A stretch of 64,000 nucleotides of DNA from Escherichia phage phi456. This document shows, one piece after another, positions 39,195 to 40,218 of this stretch. How positions within the stretch are numbered: position 1 is the stretch's first letter; every line of letters begins with the position of its first letter. The stretch lies in the sequence record OR339795; one strand, 5' to 3'. Under the pieces are notes generated by a model. It saw only the letters and a program-made list of their open reading frames with translations, searched no databases and was not told the DNA's origin. The position numbers and the translations under genes are program-made.

Positions 39195-40218
39195 TTAATT
39201 ACTTACAGTTTCAGGCTTCGGGAAACTGAACAGTAAATCACGGTAGTATTCGTATTGTTTCTGGCGCAACTCGATTTCACGCGGAAGACCTTCGGTGATG
39301 GAGTTTGTCAGGGTATCGAATTTGTTGAGTATTTCGACAATGCGAGCTTGCAAGGTGAGTGGCGGTACAGGGATTGGGTATTTCATTATATCCTCTTTAC
39401 TGCCACGCGGCATTTTTGCTCCTTTAGCATGCTGCATGTTGTATTCAAAGAATTTGTCATCTGCCAAAATCTGATATAGATATCTGGTATTTATTGAGCT
39501 ATCTATGCAACGAATAACCAATACATCGCCATTTGTTCCACCGATACAATCTGCTTGCCAAATTTTTTTCAAATATGGGCGGATATTCCCAATCAGTATA
39601 TCGTTAGGTATAAACTCCGTTAATTTACCTGATGTCGGTACATGATTAGATAATGATTTTCCTGCTCTGTTTTGCAGCAGATTATCTACGCCAACATAAT
39701 TCCTTTCATCAAGTAGTTCGAAACTAATTCTTGTTTTCGAGTATTGAGCCACTTCTCCCAAAGTCTTCCACTCAACCTCACCCTCTTTAAAACTCAACAA
39801 CTGGTCGCGATAGTAGTTGTACTGTTTTTTACGCATGTTAAGCTCAGCGGTAAGCTCAGCGGTAAGCTCAGCGGTAAGTGCAGTAAATTTATCCAGAATC
39901 CGAACGATTTCAGACTGGATGGCAAGAGACTTTTCTGGATTGTTTGAACAGGGAATTGGAATTTTAATTTTAGATAAATCGCCACTGGAAACCCGTCGGA
40001 CTTTAGCTCCAGTAATATATTTCATTTTTTGTGTTTGAAATATTTCGGACTGGAAGAAATAGGCGAGATATTTAACATTTTGCTCGTGGCGAAATAACAT
40101 CATATCTCCGGAAATAGCAACGTTATCGCCAAGCCAGGCTAAAGGTTTTACTACATCTTCATCGTTTTCTGATGTTGTTGCTAGCAATAAGTCATTTTTT
40201 TGAGCCTTTCTCAGCTTA
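39195..40218 (-). pseudogene. hsdS: Type I specificity subunit HsdS, C-terminal part, separated from its 5' end by IS5
   Basis: Conserved central and distal regions with TAEL x3; the track ORF 39195-40265 borrows its first codons from the IS5 end. Confidence 0.8.
39841..39876 (-). repeat. three perfect 12-bp tandem repeats encoding TAEL x3 in hsdS
   Basis: agctcagcggta x3 on the plus strand; repeat number sets recognition-site spacer length in EcoR124-family HsdS (two versus three copies). Confidence 0.9.

Follow-up and report, generated by a model that had tools for sequence, protein, structure and literature searches.

The window, that is, the whole stretch of 64,000 nt analysed here, carries on its minus strand open reading frames (ORFs) of 520, 96, 326, 356 and 1038 aa, in this order, with a short tandem repeat in the ORF of 356 aa. 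The outer two are intact genes of a Type I restriction-modification (R-M) system, hsdM (41629..43191, 520 aa) and hsdR (35957..39073, 1038 aa), and the sequences between them comprise hsdS and an insertion sequence. The HsdM protein matched its EcoR124 counterpart (7bst_D) with 1142.8 bits over 519 aa at approximately 98% identity, while HsdR aligned end-to-end with EcoR124 HsdR (2w00_A, 2267 bits over 1038/1038 aa); both were above the cutoffs of the corresponding NCBIfam models, TIGR00497 for hsdM and TIGR00348 for hsdR. The stop codon of hsdM overlaps the start of hsdS by 4 nt, and hsdR follows as a separate gene 121 bp downstream of hsdS, with no prrC-like gene in this gap. It may be added that the C-terminus of hsdM contains another perfect tandem repeat of 12 bp in two copies (41714-41737, minus strand), encoding AELN-AELK in the C-terminal helix; this TAEL-like motif is also found in EcoR124 HsdM, and its two copies may be due to chance.

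Judged by its gene content, the window is a P1-like phage-plasmid. Neighbours of the hsd genes include phd/doc, an IS1, the P1 c1 repressor and the P1 cre-res-mod-darB block, and the 20.8 kb to the right of hsdM were 98% identical to phages P1 and P7 over 74-88% of the length. Backbone ORFs at the positions of cre, res, mod and darB occupy the region 43.2-64 kb (e.g. 45807-46658, 49012-50043, 52120-55032, 55035-56996 and 57846-63995). Those of the size of P1-type res and mod (970 and 653 aa) look intact, and the element would thus carry a second R-M system beside the Type IC one, which is broken as described below. On the other side of the cassette, the gene adjoining hsdR (35186-35692, plus strand, noted together with 33851-35113, plus strand) encodes a polynucleotide kinase/phosphatase domain, HAD_PNKP, and its counterpart on plasmid pTB211 is annotated as a phage 3'-phosphatase/5'-kinase; the 420-aa ORF adjoining this gene gave no family match. 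PrrC is a nuclease associated with Type IC systems, and the tRNA it cleaves is mended by T4-type Pnk; the position of a HAD_PNKP gene beside a Type IC cassette is curious in view of this relation. Descriptions of Type IC cassettes on P1-like plasmids were not found in the literature searched.

The repeat was read directly from the window as agctcagcggta x3 on the plus strand (39841-39876). On the coding strand, the three perfect 12-bp units ACCGCTGAGCTT (39840..39875, minus strand) are read as ACC GCT GAG CTT, or T-A-E-L, at 39864-39875, 39852-39863 and 39840-39851. Tandem Repeats Finder delimited the tract at 39839-39878 with a period of 12, 3.3 copies, 100% matches and a score of 80. Matches to the 12-mer with at most one mismatch averaged 0.35 per dinucleotide shuffle of the window and reached three in 0/100 shuffles, and runs of at least 24 nt at a lag of 12 are expected about 2e-10 times per 64 kb of random sequence. 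The perfect threefold TAEL repeat, which the sequence-only reading had placed here, is thereby confirmed. Its translated surroundings, ...ILDKFTAL-TAEL-TAEL-TAEL-NMRKKQYNYYRDQLLSF... (protein flanks ...ILDKFTAL(TAEL)3NMRKKQYNYYRDQLLSF), are those of the central conserved region of EcoR124 HsdS. Neither a further copy of the 12-mer nor a second TAEL-type unit or second hsdS was found in the 64-kb window.

The ORF bearing the repeat (39195-40265, 356 aa) represents the 3' part of hsdS alone: its ATG and first 16 codons lie within an IS5 element, and the 16 IS-encoded residues are followed by HsdS residues 73-412. The 3' fragment of hsdS proper (codons 73/74-412 and the stop) spans 39195..40218 on the minus strand and includes a remnant of the N-terminal target recognition domain, TRD1 (39963-40217), the central conserved, or dimerisation, region from IPIPC to WKTLGE (39753..39962), TRD2 (39345-39752) and the C-terminal conserved region (39198-39344). 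The 5' fragment, codons 1-73 (41414..41632, minus strand), reads on into IS5, so that the ORF of 96 aa (41342-41632) consists of HsdS residues 1-73 followed by 23 IS-encoded residues and is devoid of Pfam or Methylase_S domains. Between the two fragments lies a complete IS5 of 1195 bp (40219..41413, minus strand) with the terminal inverted repeats GGAAGGTGCGAACAAG and GGAAGGTGCGAATAAG and a transposase gene co-oriented with hsdS (40365-41345, 326 aa). The transposase has the Pfam domains DDE_Tnp_1 and DUF772 and scored 367 bits against the NCBIfam model of the IS5 family, NF033581 (cutoff 140), and matching features in a plasmid search are annotated as IS5/InsH. In its length, its inverted repeats, the 4-bp duplication of its target and its IS5-family DDE transposase, the element agrees with this identification. 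The duplicated target, TAAG on the coding strand and CTTA on the plus strand, is present at 40215..40218 and at 41414..41417 (both minus strand); it is one base off YTAR, the usual IS5 target. That the IS5 might stem from an assembly artefact was considered and rejected, as the element has its exact length and is flanked by a 4-bp duplication of its target. The insertion point is thus after codon 73, inside TRD1, and the uninterrupted frame that a functional full-length specificity subunit requires is replaced by fragments of 96 and 356 aa. The sequence-only reading was silent on this element.

Removal of IS5 together with one copy of the duplication restored, in frame, an HsdS of 412 aa with two Methylase_S stretches. 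The reconstructed 1239 nt were 100% identical to intact, annotated three-unit hsdS genes on at least 10 E. coli plasmids (e.g. NZ_CP033251 and NZ_CP034590); the allele of pTB211, the plasmid of NZ_CP033251, was compared base by base and has three units. A first plasmid search with IS5 included in the query was swamped by copies of the element. Across the flanking DNA, consisting of hsdR and the 3' part of hsdS, identity to these plasmids amounted to 99.9-100% in seven cases and to 99.2% in one more, with the match ending exactly at the IS5 junction. The junction itself was absent from all PLSDB plasmids and from all 5,426 complete E. coli genomes searched, for which reason the insertion looks private to its source. 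Furthermore, it is probably recent, as we infer from the zero divergence between the reconstruction and the intact alleles. Nothing was seen that contradicts this structural picture of the locus.

Compared with EcoR124I HsdS (PDB 7bst), the reconstructed protein was 68% identical in the N-terminal, 91% in the central and 98% in the C-terminal conserved region. In the central region 64/70 residues were identical, the extra TAEL accounting for four of the six differences. Identities of TRD1 and TRD2 were 21% and 17%, respectively, and both domains are unrelated to those of EcoR124I. It should be kept in mind that chain A of this structure (7bst_A), although named 'EcoR124II specificity protein', has 404 aa and two TAEL units and is therefore the EcoR124I form, a naming trap. 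Type I families are defined by the interchangeability of their subunits. The closeness of HsdM and HsdR to the prototypes of the family, the succession of conserved regions, TRD1, tetra-amino-acid repeats and TRD2 in the reconstructed 412-aa HsdS, and the gene order with overlapping hsdM and hsdS and a separate downstream hsdR are all those of Type IC, and on these sequence features the gene is an hsdS of the EcoR124 family.

In this family the TAEL tract lies in helix D1, the first helix of the coiled coil by which the two TRDs of HsdS are kept apart, and is a documented determinant of spacer length (PMC3874165, PMC7383803, PMC10644984). EcoR124I, with two TAEL units, recognises GAA N6 RTCG, and EcoR124II, with three, GAA N7 RTCG; EcoDXXI and EcoprrI likewise have three units and N7 spacers (PMC3874165). 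That two versus three copies correspond to N6 versus N7, as stated in the sequence-only reading, agrees with that source. EcoR124II was converted to EcoR124I through removal of one unit with mutagenesis primers (PMC10644984); these primers match the present sequence exactly, and the 12-bp unit is nucleotide-identical to that of EcoR124II. Variation in LEAT repeats changes N6/N7 motifs among natural gonococcal strains as well (PMC6789123). Mechanistically, each 12-bp unit adds one helical turn, and the step from two to three units places the TRDs approximately 1 bp further apart, turning N6 into N7 and extending the interval between the methylated adenines from 7 to 8 nt. The copy number itself shifts when the perfect repeats slip or cross over unequally.

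Since the TRDs of the present allele are unrelated to those of EcoR124, the target is, by this comparison, not GAA N7 RTCG, and the geometry alone would be predictable. The sequence-only reading had held that unrelated TRDs would make the spacer inference inapplicable. Unrelated they are, yet the inference stands: hybrids of EcoR124I and EcoDXXI with two or three units (EcoDR2, EcoDR3, EcoRD2 and EcoRD3) recognised precisely those hybrid sites, N6 or N7, that had been predicted (PMC3874165), so that spacing follows repeat number regardless of the TRDs. This justifies predicting for the intact parental allele a bipartite site with the 'long' spacing of the EcoR124II/EcoDXXI/EcoprrI class, in which the methylated adenines would be 8 rather than 7 nt apart, the absolute length being a prediction for the class. 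For the copy at hand, the claim of EcoR124II-type spacing had to be given up: with IS5 after codon 73 no full-length HsdS can be made, and a literal N7 spacer in an EcoR124II site is not transferable to this locus.

Variation in repeat number was evident among close relatives. In public data the present TRD pair was found with three, two and one units, in HsdS forms of 412, 408 and 404 aa, respectively. Counting the repeats in related plasmids, as the sequence-only reading had proposed, gave the three-unit span of 1239 nt in 21 of the 23 complete-genome copies of the plasmid lineage; one further copy has a 1-bp deletion, and the remaining one, on p1-H9, has two units and, directly behind the central region, a stop codon (CAG to TAG). 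The p1-H9 allele (L001:6001-7227, NZ_CP029181.1) has the same TRD pair and amounts to a natural 'half HsdS' composed of TRD1 and the helix. In the protein collection, 14 versions of 408 aa (two units) were listed along with one of 404 aa (one unit), otherwise 98-99% identical; WP_337449887 represents the two-unit and WP_331396956 the one-unit type. A chromosomal lineage with 93.7% nucleotide identity varied in the same manner: by sequence, strain PAR (L020) has three units and PG20180057 (L021) two, and nine more records have a span of the same length as that of strain PAR. The same TRDs are thus combined with different numbers of units in both the plasmid and the chromosomal lineages. Judging from these alleles, repeat-number slippage is a recurrent event in nature, having affected one TRD pair in two independent lineages, with one, two or three units.

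Central regions of Type IC HsdS were encountered in 1,362 records from 1,271 of 5,426 complete E. coli genomes, in up to six places per genome. Approximately 670 of these records matched the two-unit query at >=95%, and approximately 450 matched the three-unit query; only these two queries gave usable, if approximate, counts, whereas with one-unit and four-unit queries overlapping pieces were joined by BLAST to 100% coverage at any copy number, which made identity bands meaningless. In IMG/VR, 15 loci had two units and two had three, one of the latter (L014) with a TRD1 100% identical to the present one and a different TRD2. A pattern scan of genome contigs returned one match, from Mixta tenebrionis, with two units. 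A census of the protein collection yielded many two-unit and imperfect three-unit proteins and no perfect three-unit ones; exact look-up established that both known three-unit RefSeq sequences, WP_038997080.1 and WP_001519412.1, are absent from this collection of 15 billion proteins, its ratios are biased for that reason, and DNA collections were relied on instead.

Longer tracts were also observed. Type IC hsdS genes with four, five, six and eight perfect TAEL units occur in E. coli genomes (L022-L026) and in metagenomes (L028-L031), and wherever the gene could be judged, tracts of at least five units were in disrupted hsdS. One gene with five units is interrupted by IS1 and another with five lacks its N-terminus and adjoins IS3; of those with six units, one lacks the N-terminus and one the C-terminal conserved region; in an allele with eight units, IS1 has inserted at the 5' end of hsdS. 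Among the three four-unit alleles, two (L024 and L025) have lost their C-terminal part and are closely followed by an ISEc45 transposase gene, and the third (L030) is intact. This pattern, from a small and non-random sample, suggests that selection may hold working hsdS genes at two to three units and that drift of the tract sets in when the gene no longer functions.

Given the one-, two- and three-unit versions of the same TRD pair, the tract is a real switch point at the level of the population; of the natural specificity switch claimed for this locus, that part holds, and the part referring to the present copy falls with its split hsdS. The opposite view, that the triple repeat is a fixed feature of the coiled coil without a tendency to change its copy number, could appeal to the three units in 21/23 complete-genome copies of the exact allele, but it is next to untenable in the face of the alleles with one, two and three units behind one TRD pair, of the 2/3 variation in both lineages, and of the four to eight perfect units (4, 5, 6 and 8) in other Type IC alleles. 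As for the locus itself, an active hsdS, whose three TAEL units would now give an EcoR124II-type N7 and could flip to N6 in culture, is scarcely credible. The frame is broken by a complete, target-duplicating element, the 5' ORF runs out in IS-encoded residues without a Methylase_S domain, and the unrelated TRDs make GAA N7 RTCG impossible as a target; these points outweigh the perfection of the three units, the good documentation of the switch and the 2/3-unit polymorphism behind the same TRDs, which would otherwise speak for it. Both the methylase, M2S1, and the endonuclease, R2M2S1, depend on HsdS. With hsdS split within its N-terminal TRD, no full-length HsdS would be produced, an r- m- phenotype is to be expected, and the TAEL tract would be unable to act as a switch at present. 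We therefore favour, with high confidence, the reading of the locus as a Type IC hsdM-hsdS-hsdR cassette on a P1-like phage-plasmid, in which a three-TAEL hsdS was probably inactivated by IS5 and its switch persists as a silent relic.

Two ways remain in which the cassette might nevertheless function. TRD2 and the central and C-terminal regions on either side of it survive in the 3' fragment, and an N-truncated HsdS made from the 356-aa ORF, or initiated further in, for instance at Met111 of the reconstruction, might form a homodimer via the conserved helices and acquire a new, palindromic specificity set by the C-terminal TRD. Indeed, deletion of the N-terminus of EcoDXXI HsdS resulted in a homodimer recognising GAAY N5 RTTC, and a Tn5 insertion in the reciprocal deltaC form (PMC3874165); moreover, hsdM and the IS5 transposase gene lie upstream in the same orientation, which makes read-through transcription possible. 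The product would, however, begin with 16 IS-encoded residues and approximately 85 residues of a TRD1 that has lost its N-terminal part, which makes misfolding likely, and by eye no strong Shine-Dalgarno sequence is apparent in front of the ATG at 40265, so that we give this possibility a slender chance. Were such a homodimer to operate with the intact HsdM and HsdR, it would amount to 'macroevolution by transposition' repeated in nature and to a wild counterpart of the engineered EcoDXXI deltaN. Somewhat less improbable, albeit still unlikely, is the use of the full-length HsdM and HsdR together with a Type IC HsdS borrowed from elsewhere in the host, in which case the locus would not be functionally dead. 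Interchangeability of subunits within a Type I family is established, and Type IC central regions are present in 1,271 of 5,426 complete E. coli genomes, in up to six places per genome; against this, the 64-kb window itself offers no second hsdS. The silent relic remains by far the preferred reading.

The TAEL repeat is an already known and experimentally proven Type IC spacer switch, encountered here in a pseudogene inactivated by IS5. For annotation this means that hsdS should be called a pseudogene (hsdS::IS5), and that neither an active N7-type specificity nor an EcoR124II target should be predicted from it. Beyond textbook knowledge the additions are modest and consist in the one TRD pair found with one, two and three units in two lineages and in tracts of at least five units seen only in broken hsdS genes.

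Among the known systems, the closest are EcoR124I and EcoR124II of plasmid R124, with which the present cassette has in common HsdM at approximately 98% identity, a near-identical HsdR, the conserved regions of HsdS and the very same 12-bp unit, and with EcoR124II also the number of three TAEL units. It differs from both in its two unrelated TRDs, and hence in its half-sites, and in the hsdS broken by IS5. EcoDXXI and EcoprrI are similar in being Type IC systems with non-EcoR124 TRDs and three TAEL units; their recognition sequences are known, unlike that of the present TRD pair, which was not found in the literature searched. Population-level variation in the number of tetra-amino-acid repeats of a Type IC HsdS, correlated with N6 versus N7 motifs, has a precedent in NgoAV of Neisseria gonorrhoeae (PMC6789123), which differs in its LEAT repeat, its species and TRDs and in that its variation was measured on methylomes, the variation described here being read from sequence. 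A Type IC hsdS cut by a mobile element or truncated is likewise familiar from EcoDXXI hsdS::Tn5 (deltaC), EcoDXXI deltaN, EcoR124I delta50 and the half-HsdS of NgoAV. In all of these, however, a whole TRD and a conserved helix are intact, whereas here the break lies inside TRD1 and neither fragment is a clean half-subunit. It is the p1-H9 allele, rather, whose half HsdS resembles EcoR124I delta50, EcoDXXI deltaC and NgoAV, all of which act as homodimers.
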